A stretch of 51,128 bases of DNA from an uncultured archaeon (lineage in GTDB: Archaea; Asgardarchaeota; Thorarchaeia; Thorarchaeales; Thorarchaeaceae). Positions 32,416 through 45,684 of this stretch are shown here, in pieces. The first letter of the stretch is position 1, and every line of letters begins with the position of its first letter. The stretch lies in contig CAYWJO010000023.1 of assembly GCA_964458565.1 (NCBI GenBank), positions 1-51,128 of the forward strand, read 5' to 3'. The position numbers and the translations under genes are program-made. Under the pieces are notes generated by a model. That model made no database searches. It was not told the DNA's origin and saw nothing but the letters and a program-made list of their open reading frames with translations.

Positions 32416-33309
32416 TCAATAACCCATTCTGTGGAGTTCCAGTTCTAGAAACTTACGAGTCTCAGTTAAATTATGCCATCTTTCTGCAAAGGTTTCTGCG
32501 GATATCTTTTGTTCCTTGTAGATTATTTCCAGCTCATCCAATTCAAGATTCGTTTCAGTTAATCTATCCTTGTACATCTGGACTTTAGCAGCTGCTGTAA
32601 CTTCTTCAGTATCGCTAGGTTTCTGTACTGAAATTATCTTCCCGTCCATGATTCTGTAGATTCTATCCGTCTGTCTAGCAATCGCAGGATCATGGGTTAC
32701 CACAATTACTGTCTTCCCCATTTCTTTGTTCACTCGATGCAAGAACTGAACAATCTTTGCTCCGGTGTCTGTATCTAAATCTCCTGTAGGTTCATCACAA
32801 ATGAGAATTGGAGGATCGTTAGCAAGTGCTGCGGCTATAGCAACGCGTTGTCTTTCTCCTCCACTGAGCTCATCAGGTTTATGTTGCTTTCTCAGTTCAA
32901 GACCGACTGTCTGGAGTAGTTCAGTCACGCGCTTCTTTCTTTCACTACTAGGCATCTTGAGTGCCAACATCGGTAACTCAACGTTCTCATATGCAGTAAG
33001 AGTTGGAATAAGGTTGAGTGTCTGAAAGATGTGTCCAACAACTCTCTGTCTAATAAATCCGAGTTGGGCATCAATAGCATTGGTCAGTTCATATTCACCA
33101 ACCCAAGATTGCCCCGCTGTTGCTCTTGTTAGTCCACCTAGTATATTCAGAAGTGTTGTCTTTCCGGATCCAGAAGGGCCAACGATAGCAATCATCTCAC
33201 CCTTCTCGATTTTAATGGATAAACCTCGTAATGCTTGTACTTCCAAATTACCAAGTTTGAATACTTTCAAGAGTTCCTTTGTTTCTATATAGCTAGTCAT
33301 TATATTCAC
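32416..33309 (-). CDS. ABC ATPase, LolD/MacB type, with C-terminal helical extension
   Basis: GPSGSGKT, LSGGERQR, CDEPTGDLD, VTHD. Confidence 0.92.
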   Translation of the reverse strand: MNIMTSYIETKELLKVFKLGNLEVQALRGLSIKIEKGEMIAIVGPSGSGKTTLLNILGGLTRATAGQSWVGEYELTNAIDAQLGFIRQRVVGHIFQTLNLIPTLTAYENVELPMLALKMPSSERKKRVTELLQTVGLELRKQHKPDELSGGERQRVAIAAALANDPPILICDEPTGDLDTDTGAKIVQFLHRVNKEMGKTVIVVTHDPAIARQTDRIYRIMDGKIISVQKPSDTEEVTAAAKVQMYKDRLTETNLELDELEIIYKEQKISAETFAERWHNLTETRKFLELELHRMGY

Positions 33310-36077
33310 TACTCCCTTAGAATGTCAATTCGTTCCTCTGAAAATCGAGCCGCATTTATCACGGGAATCAAGGCGGCAAGAACCACTCCAAAAACGATAG
33401 CAAGCATACTCACGATTGAAATAGGTGTCAGAATAATTTGTGGTCTGATTATTGAGGAAGAACTCTCCACGGTGTTTGATATATCACCAAACAGCTGGAT
33501 GAATCCTGTTGCAGTTCCTAATATCAAAGAAAAGAGAACCAGGACCATAACTTCTCCAGCAAGTACTGTGAGTGTTTGTCGCCAATTGAATCCTCTCACT
33601 CCTAGAAGAGTTGTTTCATACTGTTTCTCTCTCAAAGTCAATGTGATTACAAGCAATGTTCCGACAATGGCTAGAACAGCGGCAAATGTGACCCCAAGCA
33701 ATCTAGCCCTAGTCCCTCCGACTTGATAACTACTCTCTTGAGCTGCAGCGACTCTAGAAGTGAATGAATCGGTACTCTCGACTTGGGGGAACATTGATTC
33801 AACCTCAGATTCAAGAAGTGTTCCATTAACACTTGGCTCAGTGTTGACTAATACATGACCTTCTGCATAATTGATGAGACCTGTATCTTCCAAGAAATCT
33901 ATTGGGACATATGACTGATATGAACCACCGAAGGCAAATTGACCAATAATTCCCTCAAAGAGACTAGGATATCCAACAAATCCAATTATCTCCATTCTAT
34001 GTATATCACTCGCACTTGTACCTCGTAGAGTGATGAAGTTACCAACTCTAAGATCTAGTTGTCTTGCCACACTGAGAGAGAGCAAGATCTTGTTACCAGT
34101 GAAATTGGAAAAGAGTTCATCAAGCGTATCATATGAGAACCATATGTCTTCGTAGTATGCTGAATCTCGCCAATTGGATGTGTTAATACCTCGAACACCA
34201 AGCCCACTTCTTGTACTAGACATGGTGAGTCTATATTCAACAGTCAAACTCTCAACACCCTCGAGGTCTTGGATTGTATCAACCACAGAGGTCAGATTCT
34301 CACCAGATGAGAATGTAGCACTGAAGTCAGCTCCAACTGCGAACAAATGATCACGTTCGAGTCGGTCGTTCTCAGTAAAGAGAATTCCTACACTATAGAC
34401 ACCATAAGAGACTATGAGTGATATCACAAATACTAATGCCGCATTACGTACGGGATTCCGCTTTACATTCCTAGTGGAGAGTTTACCAAAAGCTCCAAAG
34501 ATTCGCACTCCTGCATTCATAACACTTTCTTGGAATTTTTCTGAGCCTTTCAGAAGAATTTTTGTTATTCCATATAAGAAGAGTATTGGTCCAGCAAAAT
34601 TGAGAAATGCATCGATTGGACTCCAAATTGCTACAACAATCAAAAGAATGAAGTTTGTACTTAAAGCAGCAGACAAGAGAGTTGAAATACTTATTCCAAG
34701 TGCCCAGACTATAATCTTGTATGTTCCAAGCACAAGTGCAATCGTAGGTAGTAGACGTTTATACTGTCTTTGTTCCTCAATGTATACGTACTGTTTCAGA
34801 CTATCAAGTGGATCTAATTTTGACGCTCGATCAGCTGGACCTCGTACAGACCAGATTGAAATGATTAGTGAGAAGAGGACCACCACAATTGCATTGACAG
34901 GATTTCGTAAAATTACACCCAATGGATCAGTCAATGGAACATTTACCACGATGTGTCCGAATACAACACCCAACACTAATCCTAGAACTCCACCAATAAT
35001 ACCAATTATCGCACCCTCAAACAATAGCATTCTCTTGATAGATTTTGGTGCAATACCTCTGGTTTGTAATAATCCAAATTCTCTGCGTCTAAGATTGTAA
35101 CTTACGTCACTCAACATTGTTGATGAATACCAAGCCATGAATAGTATTGGTACAGCCTGTACTACAAACGTAAGAACGAGAACAGTGGACGCCAACGAAG
35201 CAAATGTCAGTGTGGTACTCACCAGATTAGTTACCCGTGTGTTATAAGCCGCAGTACGATCTTCTATTTTCGAAACCGCATTAGCAATGTTTGTCGAAGA
35301 CCCTCCAATGTCAAAGGGATTTATCAGGATATCACGATTCAGCTGACAAACAAAACCACTAGTTTCTAACATCCTTGTTGTATTAGCTAAATTCGTGTAG
35401 TATTCGAGTAGAGGTTTAAATGTCAAATCCCAATCAGCTAGAAGTAAGTTGTAATTTCTCCCGTTATCCATCTCGAATTGGATAAAGCCCAAATCTATTA
35501 CAGTAGGTGGATGTAGAAGTCTAGCTGTCTGCTCAGAGATGTCTACATATCCAGCAATAGTAAGATTCACATAAATCGTCTTAGGAAAGGGAGAATCAGT
35601 TGTGAGAATCCGAACAGGAACGTGGATTGTTTCACCACTAGATAATTTTGATGCGTTCACAGAACTTGATACAATATAGGTCTCATTTGCTTGTAGGGTT
35701 AAAGAACCATTGACATGTTGAAGACCTTCCCATATTGCTGTATAAGTTTCAAGTCCTACAATTTCAAACGACTGTCCTAGCGTACTATTGTGAGTATAGG
35801 TGATTTTTGTAAATCTATCAGCAGAATTGACCTCAGGCAACTCCTCAATAATATCTTGTAATGCATCAAACTGAGGAATGGTCCATGTGATGTTATTTTC
35901 TTGAACTCGTGCATCATAATCAATTCCCTCAAGTGCATCACTGAGACTACTTGATGTCAAAACATCAGCTGAAACTAGCATGCTAGCGAAAAAAGTGGAA
36001 GCAATGAGTACACCAATAGTGAGAGACAGGAAAATCTTGTATGAGCGTGCTACTCGTTTTAGCGCGTATTTGAACAT
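33309..36077 (-). CDS. FtsX/MacB-type ABC permease (duplicated)
   Basis: RRREFGLLQTRG and REKQYETTLLGVRG motifs, two large extracytoplasmic domains. Confidence 0.9.
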   Translation of the reverse strand: MFKYALKRVARSYKIFLSLTIGVLIASTFFASMLVSADVLTSSSLSDALEGIDYDARVQENNITWTIPQFDALQDIIEELPEVNSADRFTKITYTHNSTLGQSFEIVGLETYTAIWEGLQHVNGSLTLQANETYIVSSSVNASKLSSGETIHVPVRILTTDSPFPKTIYVNLTIAGYVDISEQTARLLHPPTVIDLGFIQFEMDNGRNYNLLLADWDLTFKPLLEYYTNLANTTRMLETSGFVCQLNRDILINPFDIGGSSTNIANAVSKIEDRTAAYNTRVTNLVSTTLTFASLASTVLVLTFVVQAVPILFMAWYSSTMLSDVSYNLRRREFGLLQTRGIAPKSIKRMLLFEGAIIGIIGGVLGLVLGVVFGHIVVNVPLTDPLGVILRNPVNAIVVVLFSLIISIWSVRGPADRASKLDPLDSLKQYVYIEEQRQYKRLLPTIALVLGTYKIIVWALGISISTLLSAALSTNFILLIVVAIWSPIDAFLNFAGPILFLYGITKILLKGSEKFQESVMNAGVRIFGAFGKLSTRNVKRNPVRNAALVFVISLIVSYGVYSVGILFTENDRLERDHLFAVGADFSATFSSGENLTSVVDTIQDLEGVESLTVEYRLTMSSTRSGLGVRGINTSNWRDSAYYEDIWFSYDTLDELFSNFTGNKILLSLSVARQLDLRVGNFITLRGTSASDIHRMEIIGFVGYPSLFEGIIGQFAFGGSYQSYVPIDFLEDTGLINYAEGHVLVNTEPSVNGTLLESEVESMFPQVESTDSFTSRVAAAQESSYQVGGTRARLLGVTFAAVLAIVGTLLVITLTLREKQYETTLLGVRGFNWRQTLTVLAGEVMVLVLFSLILGTATGFIQLFGDISNTVESSSSIIRPQIILTPISIVSMLAIVFGVVLAALIPVINAARFSEERIDILRE

Positions 36078-36095
36078 CTTGCATCACATGTCCTG

Positions 36096-36124
36096 ATGTT
36101 TGATGTTTTTCAAACATCAAACAT
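36096..36124. promoter_or_regulatory. 13-bp perfect inverted repeat (putative operator)
   Basis: ATGTTTGATGTTT-TTC-AAACATCAAACAT abutting the TATA box TTTAAATA (minus strand). Confidence 0.65.
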
Positions 36125-36290
36125 ATTTAAACATTTGGGAAATTCTAGAACAGCTTACGGTATTGGAAATAGGAGATGGAGTAGAATCTCTGCATAGGTC
36201 ACCTACCAATTAAGCAGTCTAGATTTTCTTATGTTAATGTCATGAGGAACTCTAAAGAATCCGATTCCATAAGAGTAAATAAACTTGTCA

Positions 36291-38462
36291 CTAGGAGCCA
36301 CGCCGCTTATCGTATATGATAGCAACAATTAGAACAACAATCAATACAGATCCAGTCCCAATTACTACAATTGGAGCAGTAACCCAAGGATCAAGTGGGG
36401 GAGGCTCACCAGGTCTCAAGTCGATTGTGACGCTGAATGATTCAGCACGATTCAGTGCCCAATCAAACGCTACAATATAGACTTCGAAGGAAGCGTTCAA
36501 TTGAAGTGCGGGAATCGTAGTTACCCAGAGAGTTCCGTTATATTTCATAAGATGTGATGCTTCGTAATTATTGCGTGTCACGAGGACAGAGGCATTTTCA
36601 ATTCCAGAACCTGTTTCACTAATATTCGCCCATACTACGAAACTCTGATTGATAATCACAGGTCTTGTTATGTCCCATGCAAAGAATTCAGGTCGAAGAG
36701 TGTCTGTGAGTGAAGCGAAAATACGGCGTGTCCAATTATTCATGGAACGAAGAGCATCATAAGCTGATAGTGGATCATGAGCTATGAGAAAATGTGATGC
36801 ATAACGCAAGGTTCGAAGAGCATCCGAGATAATTCCCTGAGTCTTCCCAGGTATTTCAGCGGGTAGTAATGTCAGATTGGCAAGAAACTGATTCCTGATA
36901 TAGGAGTCAAATGGATCGATATAGGTGCGCCAGATCCCAGACTGTTCGAATCGTGAATATTGACCAAAACGAGTAAGTTCACCCATCAATCCGTGACTAT
37001 AGCTAGATATGAAACTATTAGAAAATAGACTCGATTTTAGTCCAAGTAGGTCTCCTACTGCTTGCAGAATTCTCTCACTGATACCGTGCAAAGGAGTACT
37101 ATCCACGATGAGGTCCAGATAATTAGAGCATATTACGCCGTTAGTTCCGTGAGTTAGATAGGTTGCATTCAATCCATTATCTGTTAATTGTAAACCATCG
37201 CCTACAAAGATGGTCATTGCAATCGAGTTCAGGTCTCCAGTTGAGGTGTCAGTAAGAAAAGACGAACCGTTTAGAAGGATACTACCAAAATCTAATGACA
37301 CATTGCTCCAAAATGTGCTATTCAAATCTGCAACATCATCGAGATTGTTGTATGACAAACTCAGCATCATATCATCGAATGGAAGAAGTGAGTTCATTTG
37401 CGCTTCTAAATAAGCATAATTTGTGATCCAAGTGTATTCCGAAATATCACGATCAATTGAGTAAATATCCACAGTCACAGACGGCAGTGTGAAAAATTCA
37501 TCGAATGTGAATGGGTTGAGATACCTCACATTCTCTACTGTATCAGGGATAAACAGTGGTTGTATGATATCTCTGCAGTAGTCAGCAAAATAATCAGCAA
37601 TCTGATTCCGCCCTGATTCTTGAGCTAGGTCTATACTCTCGAGCTTATCAACAATTGTTGTATTGAAATATTCAGGCCATGTGTCCCCAGATGGCAAGGA
37701 GTCATTGTACCATATTTTCGCCCATTCGAGATACCATTGGTCTGCAAATGGATCAAGGATGAACTTGTTGTATGTTCCTCCAAAGCTGTTGAGTTGAATA
37801 CTTTCTGGAGGATTCACAAGGAACTCGTCATACCAGTAAGTTTCGCTCGCTGAGTCAGGATTCTGATAGTCATATTCATACCAATGGAGTCCGTACGGAA
37901 GCTCCGATACAAGCTCAGTTGTATTTAGGATATAGATGACCCATCCTTCATCACCATCCTGAACCAATGGATGTTGATTGAACCATCGTTCGACCTCTGT
38001 TGCGTTGATGGATGTTCCACTTTGAGGTTCAAAGAAATCAGGAGTGCTTGTAACTCCATCTCGGTAATCAATGAGGGCTTGAGTGTCCAACTCAGTGCCA
38101 ATGTCAATACCAGATTGTGAGTTGTTTCTTAGCATGTCCATGGTTCGATTATAATACAGATCGCTTGCAAATCGGACATTATAATCCGCAAAGTGTTCTA
38201 CAGTGAGATTATCATACTCAATCGTGCTAGATGCTGGAAGCTGGTCCACAAAATAGGTCACATTCAAGATATTCGAATCATATCCAACAAAAACAATCTT
38301 GACTGGCCAGTGTCTCTCTAGCGTTGGAAGATCTACAGATAGATTGGATTTCTGAACTAAATCCGGGGCGACAAGGGATTCCATTGTTGATGCAGACGAA
38401 ATCATAAAGAGAACAGTGATTCCAACTGCAAGTATTTGAGTGAGCCTTGTCGTATGATGCAT
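36291..38462 (-). CDS. Secreted, C-terminally anchored surface protein
   Basis: Signal peptide after ATG 38462 (ORF is open from 38516), Ig-like C-terminal domain, PPP linker, TM helix followed by KRR. Confidence 0.8.
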   Translation of the reverse strand: MHHTTRLTQILAVGITVLFMISSASTMESLVAPDLVQKSNLSVDLPTLERHWPVKIVFVGYDSNILNVTYFVDQLPASSTIEYDNLTVEHFADYNVRFASDLYYNRTMDMLRNNSQSGIDIGTELDTQALIDYRDGVTSTPDFFEPQSGTSINATEVERWFNQHPLVQDGDEGWVIYILNTTELVSELPYGLHWYEYDYQNPDSASETYWYDEFLVNPPESIQLNSFGGTYNKFILDPFADQWYLEWAKIWYNDSLPSGDTWPEYFNTTIVDKLESIDLAQESGRNQIADYFADYCRDIIQPLFIPDTVENVRYLNPFTFDEFFTLPSVTVDIYSIDRDISEYTWITNYAYLEAQMNSLLPFDDMMLSLSYNNLDDVADLNSTFWSNVSLDFGSILLNGSSFLTDTSTGDLNSIAMTIFVGDGLQLTDNGLNATYLTHGTNGVICSNYLDLIVDSTPLHGISERILQAVGDLLGLKSSLFSNSFISSYSHGLMGELTRFGQYSRFEQSGIWRTYIDPFDSYIRNQFLANLTLLPAEIPGKTQGIISDALRTLRYASHFLIAHDPLSAYDALRSMNNWTRRIFASLTDTLRPEFFAWDITRPVIINQSFVVWANISETGSGIENASVLVTRNNYEASHLMKYNGTLWVTTIPALQLNASFEVYIVAFDWALNRAESFSVTIDLRPGEPPPLDPWVTAPIVVIGTGSVLIVVLIVAIIYDKRRGS

Positions 38463-38547
38463 GTCTATCTTGAGAAATTGATTCATTTCCTTAATTAAGG
38501 ACGACTCTTCATGCATTCACTTGCTAAAAAATGGAATAAAGAAGAAA

Positions 38548-38725
38548 AGGTGGGCACAGTCTGAAGGCAATGCAACGCTTGCCGCGCCACCACCTAAATT
38601 TTTTCTGCGTCGCATTCCGAAATGACCGTTTTGGATCAATTCGCAAGACTTTCACCGCACGCCAAAGTGAAATAGTCGGCCCGCATATCATACTGTGCCC
38701 TTAGCGTTGAGGTGGATTGCGTGCT
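38548..38725 (-). ncRNA. Unclassified structured non-coding RNA candidate (~175 nt)
   Basis: 9-bp closing stem GGGCACAGT/ACTGTGCCC, three internal hairpins whose G-U pairs fit only the minus strand, TTTAAG box at 38745-38750, U-rich tract downstream. Confidence 0.65.
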
Positions 38726-38877
38726 TTCTCCATAACAACAGTTGCTTAAATGCATTTGTAAGTTTTGGTACCCGCGCGAATGTTGCATGGAGACCAATTC
38801 TTGCAACTAGACATAATAGCAACTATTAGTTCATAATATTATCATCTTCGGTCAATATAAGATATTCGGTGATTTAT

Positions 38878-39273
38878 TCATTCCTTTGGATTCAGTAATT
38901 CGTCGAGCCCCACAAGGACTTCATCCTCTGTGATTGGCCCCCTCTTCAGCAGTGTTCTCAGAGCTGAAAGAAAATTATCACCAAGCTGATAGCCCATATC
39001 CTCTACAATCGATACTACTACCCCATGATTCCAATCAGCATCTTCATCTTTGATATCATGGATTGTGACAATCTGAAATTCACCAGCCATTCCAGAGAAG
39101 AGACGAATTGTAGCAAATGTCAGCTCACTAACATCGTTTCCAGACATGGCTTTCCCGTAGAGTTGAATTGCAGAAAGAAAGGAACCAAAGAGTTGTGTGT
39201 TGTCTTCAAGCTTGTCAAAACCTGCTGAGAATTCCACAATTCCAGCTTTATTGATGACAAGTATTCCTCTCAC
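38878..39273 (-). CDS. Stand-alone longin-like domain protein
   Basis: ILVINKAGI...QLFGSFLSAIQLYG...beta-beta-beta-alpha pattern typical of Asgard longin-like domains. Confidence 0.7.
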   Translation of the reverse strand: MRGILVINKAGIVEFSAGFDKLEDNTQLFGSFLSAIQLYGKAMSGNDVSELTFATIRLFSGMAGEFQIVTIHDIKDEDADWNHGVVVSIVEDMGYQLGDNFLSALRTLLKRGPITEDEVLVGLDELLNPKE

Positions 39274-45490: not shown

Positions 45491-45684
45491 AAATCTGAAA
45501 TTGAGACATACAGATATAAATGCATCAATTGACAGTTATCGTTTAATTAATAATTGATGATTGTAATTAAAGTGGGAACGCGCTTCATTTATGGGGTCTA
45601 TGACAGAAATATGGAATAGAAGGTCTAGGATTCCATTTATCATTCCATTTCTCTAGACCAGTGAACAATCCTGTTTCAACAATA

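Follow-up and report, generated by a model that had tools for sequence, protein, structure and literature searches.

Evidence for a new structured RNA gene in Thorarchaeota with a loop complementary to the mRNA leader of an unlinked small gene

Introduction

In the archaeon Methanosarcina mazei, the trans-acting small RNA (sRNA) sRNA162 pairs with the 5' region of an mRNA (PMC3510493; PMC4152357). Here we describe a structured RNA gene, predicted on the minus strand of a 51,128-nucleotide (nt) stretch of Asgard archaeal DNA (contig CAYWJO010000023.1 of assembly GCA_964458565.1; hereafter the window), whose working principle would, by analogy, most resemble that of archaeal trans-acting sRNAs such as sRNA162. 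Like these, it appears to be an independent small gene, and it has an unpaired segment complementary to the 5' leader or ribosome-binding region of an mRNA encoded elsewhere. It differs from the archaeal sRNAs in being larger and far more rigid, with a four-way junction and 29 covarying base pairs, and shares no sequence with them. The RNA is confined to Thorarchaeota and also carries a second invariant loop that has no target, and the regulatory role considered here is one that we propose from sequence.

A second point of comparison is the RalR/RalA pair of Escherichia coli, a type I toxin-antitoxin pair with a trans-encoded antisense RNA. There, as here, a stretch of about 16 nt in the mRNA of a small basic protein is complementary to a small RNA. 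In contrast to RalR/RalA, both genes of the present pair are unlinked, single-copy and vertically inherited across the family, with no sign of mobility or toxicity. Asgard archaea are the closest prokaryotic relatives of eukaryotes, and to our knowledge almost nothing is known about RNA-based regulation in them, because most are uncultured.

A conserved fold with a four-way junction

We compared the genome that contains the window (coded G000) with relatives of the Thorarchaeota family (G005, G007 and so on; genera are coded g1-g16 and loci L followed by three digits). The sample comprised 86 family genomes from 16 genera, one sister-family genome and 113 other Asgard genomes. Twenty homologues were aligned and their base pairs predicted with RNAalifold; a covariance model was built from this alignment, and 41 sequences were then gathered for a covariation test. 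Compensatory changes were found at 30 of the 43 predicted pairs in the 20 sequences and at 29 of the 43 in the 41 sequences. In the larger set 97.0% of cells were paired, against 81.4% in shuffles and 33-44% in structures whose 3' partners had been slid by 1-3 columns, and none of 500 shuffles reached any of the observed measures. The evidence is comparative, since folding of the single sequence was no better than chance (z = -0.81, with 39 of 200 shuffles folding as well) and what is seen in the window by itself could have arisen by chance. Positions 38700-38549 almost certainly hold a real and new structured non-coding RNA gene. With 29 covarying pairs, one copy per genome and a family-wide distribution, it is among the best-supported new structured RNAs obtainable from sequence alone.

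On the minus strand the core begins with GGGCACAGU at 38700 and finishes with ACUGUGCCC-ACC at 38549. An internal loop separates the 9-bp terminal helix (P1) from P2, beyond which lies a tight four-way junction that bears the hairpins P3, P4 and P5 and has linkers of 1, 3, 1 and 0 nt (Table 1). A sequence-only reading that preceded this work had proposed a multi-stem fold made of the closing stem and three hairpins, at the minus-strand coordinates found here; these four helices are supported by covariation. It had missed P2 (38682-38679/38568-38565), which closes the four-way junction. Two other observations of that reading were borne out. G-U pairs compatible with the minus strand only occur at 38666/38656, 38635/38626 and 38611/38574, and the RNA lies in a GC-richer island, a modest one, with a GC content of 0.48-0.51 in the RNA stretch against 0.29-0.36 in the flanking intergenic DNA.

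Near or full invariance among the 41 sequences was observed at the ends GGGC and GCCC-ACC, in the P3 loop U-UGGCGUGCG (the invariant loop being UUUGGCGUGCG), in the junction pieces G-YCGA, CU-GC and GGAA, in the AA-AA of the P4 loop, and in GGUGGUGGCGCGGCA of the large P5 apical loop. Hairpin insertions are tolerated in the 5' part of this loop in the genomes G088, G045 and G011. At these loci, which represent g12 and G088 (L161 in G045, L163 in G011 and L155 in G088), the 5' half of the loop carries one or two additional hairpins, and the RNA is 188-227 nt long.

In G000 the internal loop between P1 and P2, with its UAU bulge and tandem G.A/A.G pairs, resembles the kink-turn (K-turn) of L7Ae-binding RNAs such as box C/D and H/ACA sRNAs, ribonuclease P (RNase P) RNA and signal recognition particle (SRP) RNA. 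Unlike in those RNAs, the motif is not conserved in the present family, and there are no C/D or ACA boxes. It fits in G000 and G015 only, and the linkers differ in other genera; a family-wide K-turn was rejected because the tandem G.A motif is not kept across genera. In G000 and G015 the loop could bind L7Ae. A two-tier G-quadruplex in GGUGGUGGCGCGG was also considered; since no more than three GG runs are present in G015, the RNA is unlikely to need one.

Comparison with known RNA classes

The sequence-only reading could not place the RNA in a known class and proposed a new one, which is upheld by the covariation, by the Rfam search and by the comparison with tRNA. Rfam 15 (4227 models, including SRP, RNase P, 5S, riboswitches, ribozymes, and C/D and H/ACA sRNAs) gave no match in the whole window at gathering thresholds. 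When the cut-off was relaxed to E <=10 on positions 38400-38900, only two chance matches were returned, both on the plus strand and outside the core. ARAGORN found no tRNA in the window.

The RNA has a certain likeness to tRNA: four helices surround a junction, the terminal helix is GGGC...GCCC-A-CC, the leader is short and variable and the trailer is U-rich. However, P1 is 9 bp long and leads into an internal loop, there is no T-loop, position 8 is G rather than U and the P4 loop has 6 nt, and a tRNA was rejected on these features. The 3' end is ACC followed by U or C, whereas 29 of the 32 ARAGORN tRNA predictions in G000 finish in CCA. These 32 are the only tRNA genes given by ARAGORN for this genome, most of them with introns (106-141 nt), and a selenocysteine tRNA (tRNA-Sec) is found at C1:18648-18738.

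A divergent stand-in for 5S, SRP or RNase P RNA was likewise rejected. SRP RNA (C47, 87.9 bits) and RNase P RNA (C1, 142 bits) are encoded elsewhere in G000 and normal 5S genes are present in five genomes of the family, so this is no housekeeping RNA in disguise. G000 itself gave a single 5S rRNA match, a partial one (83 nt, 32 bits, C55:19270-19352). No reading frame is conserved, and a small protein gene is inconsistent with stop codons in all three sense frames of the window sequence and in all six frames of L026, and with indels that are not multiples of three. The possibility of a miniature inverted-repeat transposable element (MITE) or other dispersed repeat, raised with the original observation, was dismissed as well: G000 carries a single copy, each of 68 genomes gave one covariance-model match, and nothing in the RNA behaves like a MITE.

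Distribution of the RNA across Asgard archaea

The RNA family is single-copy and specific to Thorarchaeota. One copy was detected by the covariance model in each of 68 of the 86 family genomes, among them members of all 16 genera and 21 of the 23 high-quality genomes. BLASTN retrieved one related stretch from most family genomes, with 69-84% identity over window positions 38702-38535, and nothing convincing outside the Thorarchaeota family. None of the 113 other Asgard genomes sampled had a covariance-model match. Even with lax filters and a motif scan, the RNA was found neither in the sister-family genome G025 (96% complete) nor in four family genomes that are 97%, 93%, 93% and 86% complete, the last a single contig; as it is absent from near-complete genomes, the RNA is not indispensable. 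For a broader view, one genome each of 185,579 species was scanned with an anchored pattern. Among archaea this gave 47 records, of which nearly all bear the label Candidatus Thorarchaeota or Promethearchaeota; nine high-GC bacterial matches of the pattern all failed the covariance model.

One metagenome-assembled genome, JBHLLF010000001.1 (L246), is deposited as Candidatus Hermodarchaeota, yet a copy of the RNA in it reaches a full score (154 bits). As its counterpart in our sample falls within the Thorarchaeota family, the deposited label is probably wrong. Contig ends in G005 (C20, L091) and G069 (C30, L092) hold copies that are cut off there; the second, partial copy in G005 probably stems from strain heterogeneity in the bin.

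The P5 loop is complementary to the leader of an unlinked small gene

The complement of a 16-mer from the P5 loop, searched for in the whole of G000 with <=2 mismatches, has one match besides the RNA gene itself. It is intergenic, at G000:C3:~154757, 28-43 nt upstream of a small open reading frame (ORF) on the opposite strand, whose sense strand reads UUGCCGCGCCACCACU, antisense to the P5 loop. The 17-mer of the loop is a Watson-Crick/wobble antisense of a conserved C-rich block, UGCCGCGCCACCAC, located ~15-40 nt upstream of the start codon of this unlinked gene. A TATATA box lies ~95 nt before the AUG; with transcription starting ~25 nt past this box, the block would fall inside a 5' leader of ~65 nt. 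The complementarity between the P5 loop and the leader of the unlinked small ORF is what is new here.

The small ORF is present in 63 of the 86 family genomes and encodes a basic protein of 54 amino acids (aa) in G000 and 54-78 aa in relatives, which mostly starts with MAETC (MTETC in G000). In about 20 of 30 loci it is flanked by a DHDPS-Fae fusion gene on one side and an M20 peptidase gene on the other, and it has its own promoter. No match to the protein sequence was found in Pfam, NCBIfam or PDB. An AlphaFold model (predicted local distance difference test, pLDDT, 74.6) has a beta-alpha-beta-beta-beta layout, for which the best Foldseek match, a Roadblock protein, was not significant (E 0.25). 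The leader is highly conserved and has a layout common across genera, in which the TATATA box is followed by a short hairpin, the C-rich block and GCAUCCGUCGGAG-AUG. The stem of the hairpin covaries (AGUCU/AGACU, AGUCU/AGGCU and AGCUU/AAGCU), and 3' of the C-rich block stands GCAUCCGUCGGAG, which contains the Shine-Dalgarno sequence GGAG, and then AUGGCUGAGACC.

For each of the 13,131 ORFs of >=50 aa in G000, the 75-nt upstream region was scored for pairing with the 20-nt loop. The small-ORF leader ranked first, at -39.2 kcal/mol; the next best region scored -31.7 kcal/mol, and the mean was -13.4 kcal/mol with a standard deviation of 3.5. In 30 genomes for which both sequences were available, the median loop-leader duplex was -32.4 kcal/mol, compared with -19.3 kcal/mol for shuffled leaders (300 for each genome), and in 28 of the 30 the observed energy was reached by <=1% of the shuffled leaders. 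The duplex of G007 has -43.7 kcal/mol, and in G008 the C-rich block is again present just upstream of the small ORF. Pairing was seen in eight genera (g1, g2, g3, g4, g6, g8, g9 and g16). The complementarity between the unpaired RNA segment and the mRNA leader is thus conserved and above chance. Duplexes computed with duplexfold between the whole RNA and the whole leader were unrealistically long, with a mean z of only -1.0, and the loop-only analysis was used instead.

Changes on the two sides are in some cases matched. In G015 the loop lacks GGU and has an A to G change, the leader reads UCGCCGCGCCACCU, and 14 perfect pairs can form. Other matched variants are the loop CAGC with the leader GUUGCC in g8, and the loop CAAGC with the leader GCU-GCC in g3. 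Leader substitutions are mostly C to U or A to G, keeping G.U pairs with the unchanged RNA, and leader insertions of one base (g3) and 3 nt (g8) would be tolerable as bulges in a duplex. Genus g12 either lacks the RNA or has it in a form rebuilt by hairpin insertions, and its leader block has diverged as well. The inserts in the P5 loop of g12 contain CCGUUGG, complementary to one conserved part of the g12 small-ORF leader, and CUCCGUCGG, identical with another.

A number of observations weigh against base pairing as the function of this RNA. The leader block is missing in g5, g7, g12 and g14 (g14 has a homologue of the small ORF, with a leader that lacks the block), and pattern and profile searches did not find the small ORF in g10, g11, g13 and g15. 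As the P5 loop is invariant in genera without the ORF or the block, this pairing can be neither the entire function of the RNA nor its original one. The leader substitutions divide into ~13 that preserve wobble pairing and 2 that break it, an excess that is not statistically strong, given that C or A occupies 10 of the 14 positions of the block and that in so C-rich a block most transitions would in any case be compatible with wobble pairing. The matched changes would also be expected if one sequence-specific protein bound both sites, and a plain antisense regulator needs no 150-nt four-way junction with a second invariant loop. For that second loop, P3, no conserved antisense partner was found in G000 or family-wide: the two near-matches in G000 are both in coding regions, and family-wide the 11-mer was no commoner than its control. 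Because of the relatedness of the genomes, the result in 28 of 30 does not amount to 28 independent tests, and the ends, expression and regulation of the RNA are all predicted.

Weighing both sides, we regard it as an even question whether base pairing with the small-ORF leader is a true function of the RNA, and such pairing would probably be one function, not the only or the oldest one. The RNA would be transcribed from its own promoter, with a transcription factor B recognition element (BRE) and TATA box, and would end at the T-rich tract. Its exposed P5 loop could then anneal in trans to the small-ORF leader, beside the Shine-Dalgarno GGAG, and so change translation or stability of the mRNA, repression and activation being alike possible. 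Protein binding or stability would probably be what the junction, the P3 loop and the invariant ends (GGGC...GCCC-ACC) serve. These elements point to a further, older role, since the loop stays invariant in genera that lack the leader block, and the unchanging P3 loop together with the tRNA-like ends hints at a second function. If the pairing holds, it would give Thorarchaeota a first sRNA-mRNA pair and offer a way to approach the small basic protein, which is uncharacterised and conserved in the family.

A second, near-perfect site antisense to the P5 loop, UUUGCCGCGC-ACCACCUA (-31.7 kcal/mol; L257/L260), lies on the minus strand at G000:C26:~45504-45521, 36 nt upstream of a gene for a 326-aa membrane protein (G000:C26:45468). 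Its ribosome-binding region (AUGGAGACC-UCUAAAAAUG) resembles that of the small ORF in G000. The membrane-protein gene is present only in G000 and in genus g13, where the site is weak; the site is not conserved and is an unconfirmed candidate. Exact further copies of the motif on G022:C73 and G044:C1 are inside coding regions and were put down to chance.

Alternative readings of the conserved loops

Of the alternatives to base pairing, the one that survives best, which we consider possible although doubtful, is a stable ribonucleoprotein (RNP) or tRNA-like RNA. Its task would be set by proteins bound to the junction and to two G-rich invariant loops, UGGCGUGCGG and UGGCGCGGC, and the leader complementarity would be a secondary, lineage-limited addition or would not be used at all. 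The invariance of loops and junction throughout the 16 genera, even where the leader block is lacking, is well accommodated by an RNP, as is the UGGCG-GCGG motif that both loops have in common. The invariant ends GGGC...GCCC-ACC next to a variable leader look as if they arose by tRNA-like processing, the K-turn-like loop of G000 would suit a bound protein, and the RNA is single-copy and vertically inherited. However, the partner protein is only hypothetical and the RNA is not essential, being missing from the near-complete G009 (97%) and the single-contig G044. An RNP would also leave unexplained that the top-ranked antisense site of the genome lies within a conserved mRNA leader.

We think it improbable that the RNA is a trans-acting sensor, in which the junction and the P3 loop would bind a metabolite or protein and thereby control access of the P5 loop to mRNA leaders. 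The G-rich P5 loop would be either free or held by the invariant 3' tail of the RNA itself (GGUGG with CCACC). Were this so, Asgard archaea would have a riboswitch-like regulator acting on unlinked genes.

The shared 14-17-nt motif could also be a DNA or RNA site for one sequence-specific protein at both loci, with no RNA-RNA duplex. The same double-stranded sequence is indeed found at both loci and changes together in G015, and the product of the small ORF is basic and could bind nucleic acid. Three features speak against a protein site and make it a decidedly improbable explanation: the motif sits ~100 nt inside a transcribed, structured region of the RNA gene, leader insertions of 1 nt and 3 nt would break the register of a protein-DNA contact where they only bulge a duplex, and the substitutions are mostly wobble-compatible.

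Transcription signals and neighbouring genes

The RNA carries predicted signals of a transcription unit of its own, namely a conserved upstream BRE/TATA and a T-rich tail. Of 29 homologues scored, 28 have an element RACCRAAAG-TATAWC at a distance of 29-45 nt upstream of GGGC, and with this spacing transcription would start 0-15 nt before GGGC. The TTTAAG box proposed earlier as the promoter is present and may serve as an alternative TATA; it is ACCAAAACT-TACAAAT (38771-38755) that aligns with the BRE/TATA of the homologues, and the choice between the two is uncertain. The leader differs in sequence and length between all genera, and BLAST conservation starts only at 38702. All three complementarities that the sequence-only reading noted between a 24-nt leader and internal segments do exist in the window. 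However, this leader is specific to the window and has no counterpart in homologues, so the two pseudoknots and the strand invasion are not conserved and pseudoknots cannot be a property of the family. The U-rich tract noted at 38526-38548 is present and has its equivalent in the pyrimidine-rich tail of the homologues: the first 10 nt downstream of ACC are 88% pyrimidine, and a run of T4 or longer occurs within 14 nt in 23 of 53. This tail would fit an archaeal oligo-T terminator.

Table 1. Positions of the RNA gene, its parts and flanking signals in the window, with the candidate partner gene
Feature	Position	Strand	Basis
Candidate BRE/TATA, ACCAAAACT-TACAAAT	38755..38771	-	Aligns with RACCRAAAG-TATAWC of homologues; presumed promoter
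TTTAAG, alternative TATA	38750-38745	-	Candidate of the sequence-only reading
Non-conserved 5' leader, ~20-32 nt here, ~0-15 nt in most homologues	38701..38732	-	Putative start from TATA spacing
Conserved RNA core, 152 nt, GGGC to GCCC-ACC	38549..38700	-	Covariance model R1, 153 bits, E 4e-33
P1, 5' strand; GGGC invariant	38692..38700 (pairs 38552-38560)	-	5/9 pairs compensatory, 97.6% of cells paired
K-turn-like internal loop, 5' side: UAU bulge 38692-38690, then G38689 A38688 opposite G38561 A38560	38684..38692 (with 38560-38564)	-	Read from sequence
P2, 5' strand, closing the four-way junction	38679..38682 (pairs 38565-38568)	-	3/5 pairs compensatory, 96.1% paired
P3 hairpin, 38677-38666/38656-38647; loop U-UGGCGUGCG (38666-38656)	38647..38677	-	8/10 pairs compensatory; loop columns invariant in 41 sequences
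P4 hairpin, 38643-38634/38627-38618; loop CAAAAC (38633-38628)	38618..38643	-	5/7 pairs compensatory
P5 stem, 38616-38607/38578-38569; apical loop ~28 nt (38606-38579)	38569..38616	-	8/9 pairs compensatory, 99.7% paired
Invariant G-rich segment of P5 loop, 17-mer AGGUGGUGGCGCGGCAA, proposed mRNA-leader seed	38579..38595	-	Invariant columns; complementarity to leader of G000:C3:154552-154731
P1, 3' strand, then invariant ACC (38551-38549)	38552..38560	-	Alignment
Pyrimidine/T-rich tract UUUU...UUUUUU, likely archaeal terminator	38526..38548	-	Predicted termination
Small basic protein gene (L095/L071), outside the window	G000:C3:154552-154731	-	

The sequence-only reading had further suggested an attenuator-type switch for the surface-protein gene or a ribozyme. 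Control in cis of the surface-protein and FtsX-permease genes that follow, by a leader, riboswitch or attenuator, draws on the position of the RNA in G000, where a 741-aa ORF begins 30 nt 3' of it on the same strand, and on the occurrence of this cluster (a homologue of the C-terminal part of the 741-aa protein plus an FtsX-type permease) 3' of the RNA in 20 of the 41 loci compared. It is those 20 loci only, however; elsewhere the next gene is unrelated and encodes a tyrosyl-tRNA synthetase (TyrRS), an M3-type peptidase, a tetratricopeptide repeat (TPR) protein, a major facilitator superfamily (MFS)-like transporter, a HicB-like protein or others, and the genes upstream of the RNA vary too. 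As the downstream gene varies, the RNA is a free-standing gene, and a switch for the surface-protein gene is effectively ruled out; the pyrimidine/T tract between the RNA and that gene and the lack of an Rfam riboswitch match also argue against control in cis, which is largely refuted and to which we give hardly any weight. Just as implausible is a self-cleaving or other catalytic RNA that trims its own variable leader between AA and GGGC, for although such a leader before an invariant GGGC and invariant nucleotides at the four-way junction would suit it, no Rfam ribozyme family matched even at E <=10, no known catalytic core motif was recognised and there is no positive evidence for a ribozyme, and judged by the TATA spacing, transcription in several genera would begin at GGGC or only a few nt away from it, so that cleavage is not needed.

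The genes 3' of the RNA in the window (32416-38516, minus strand) are those of the 741-aa protein, which has a signal peptide, and of a 922-aa protein in which two FtsX domains are present, together with a 297-aa ORF. Relatives have no more of the 741-aa protein than its C-terminal ~140 aa, as a protein of ~190 aa ahead of the permease, so the protein of the window is an N-terminally extended form.

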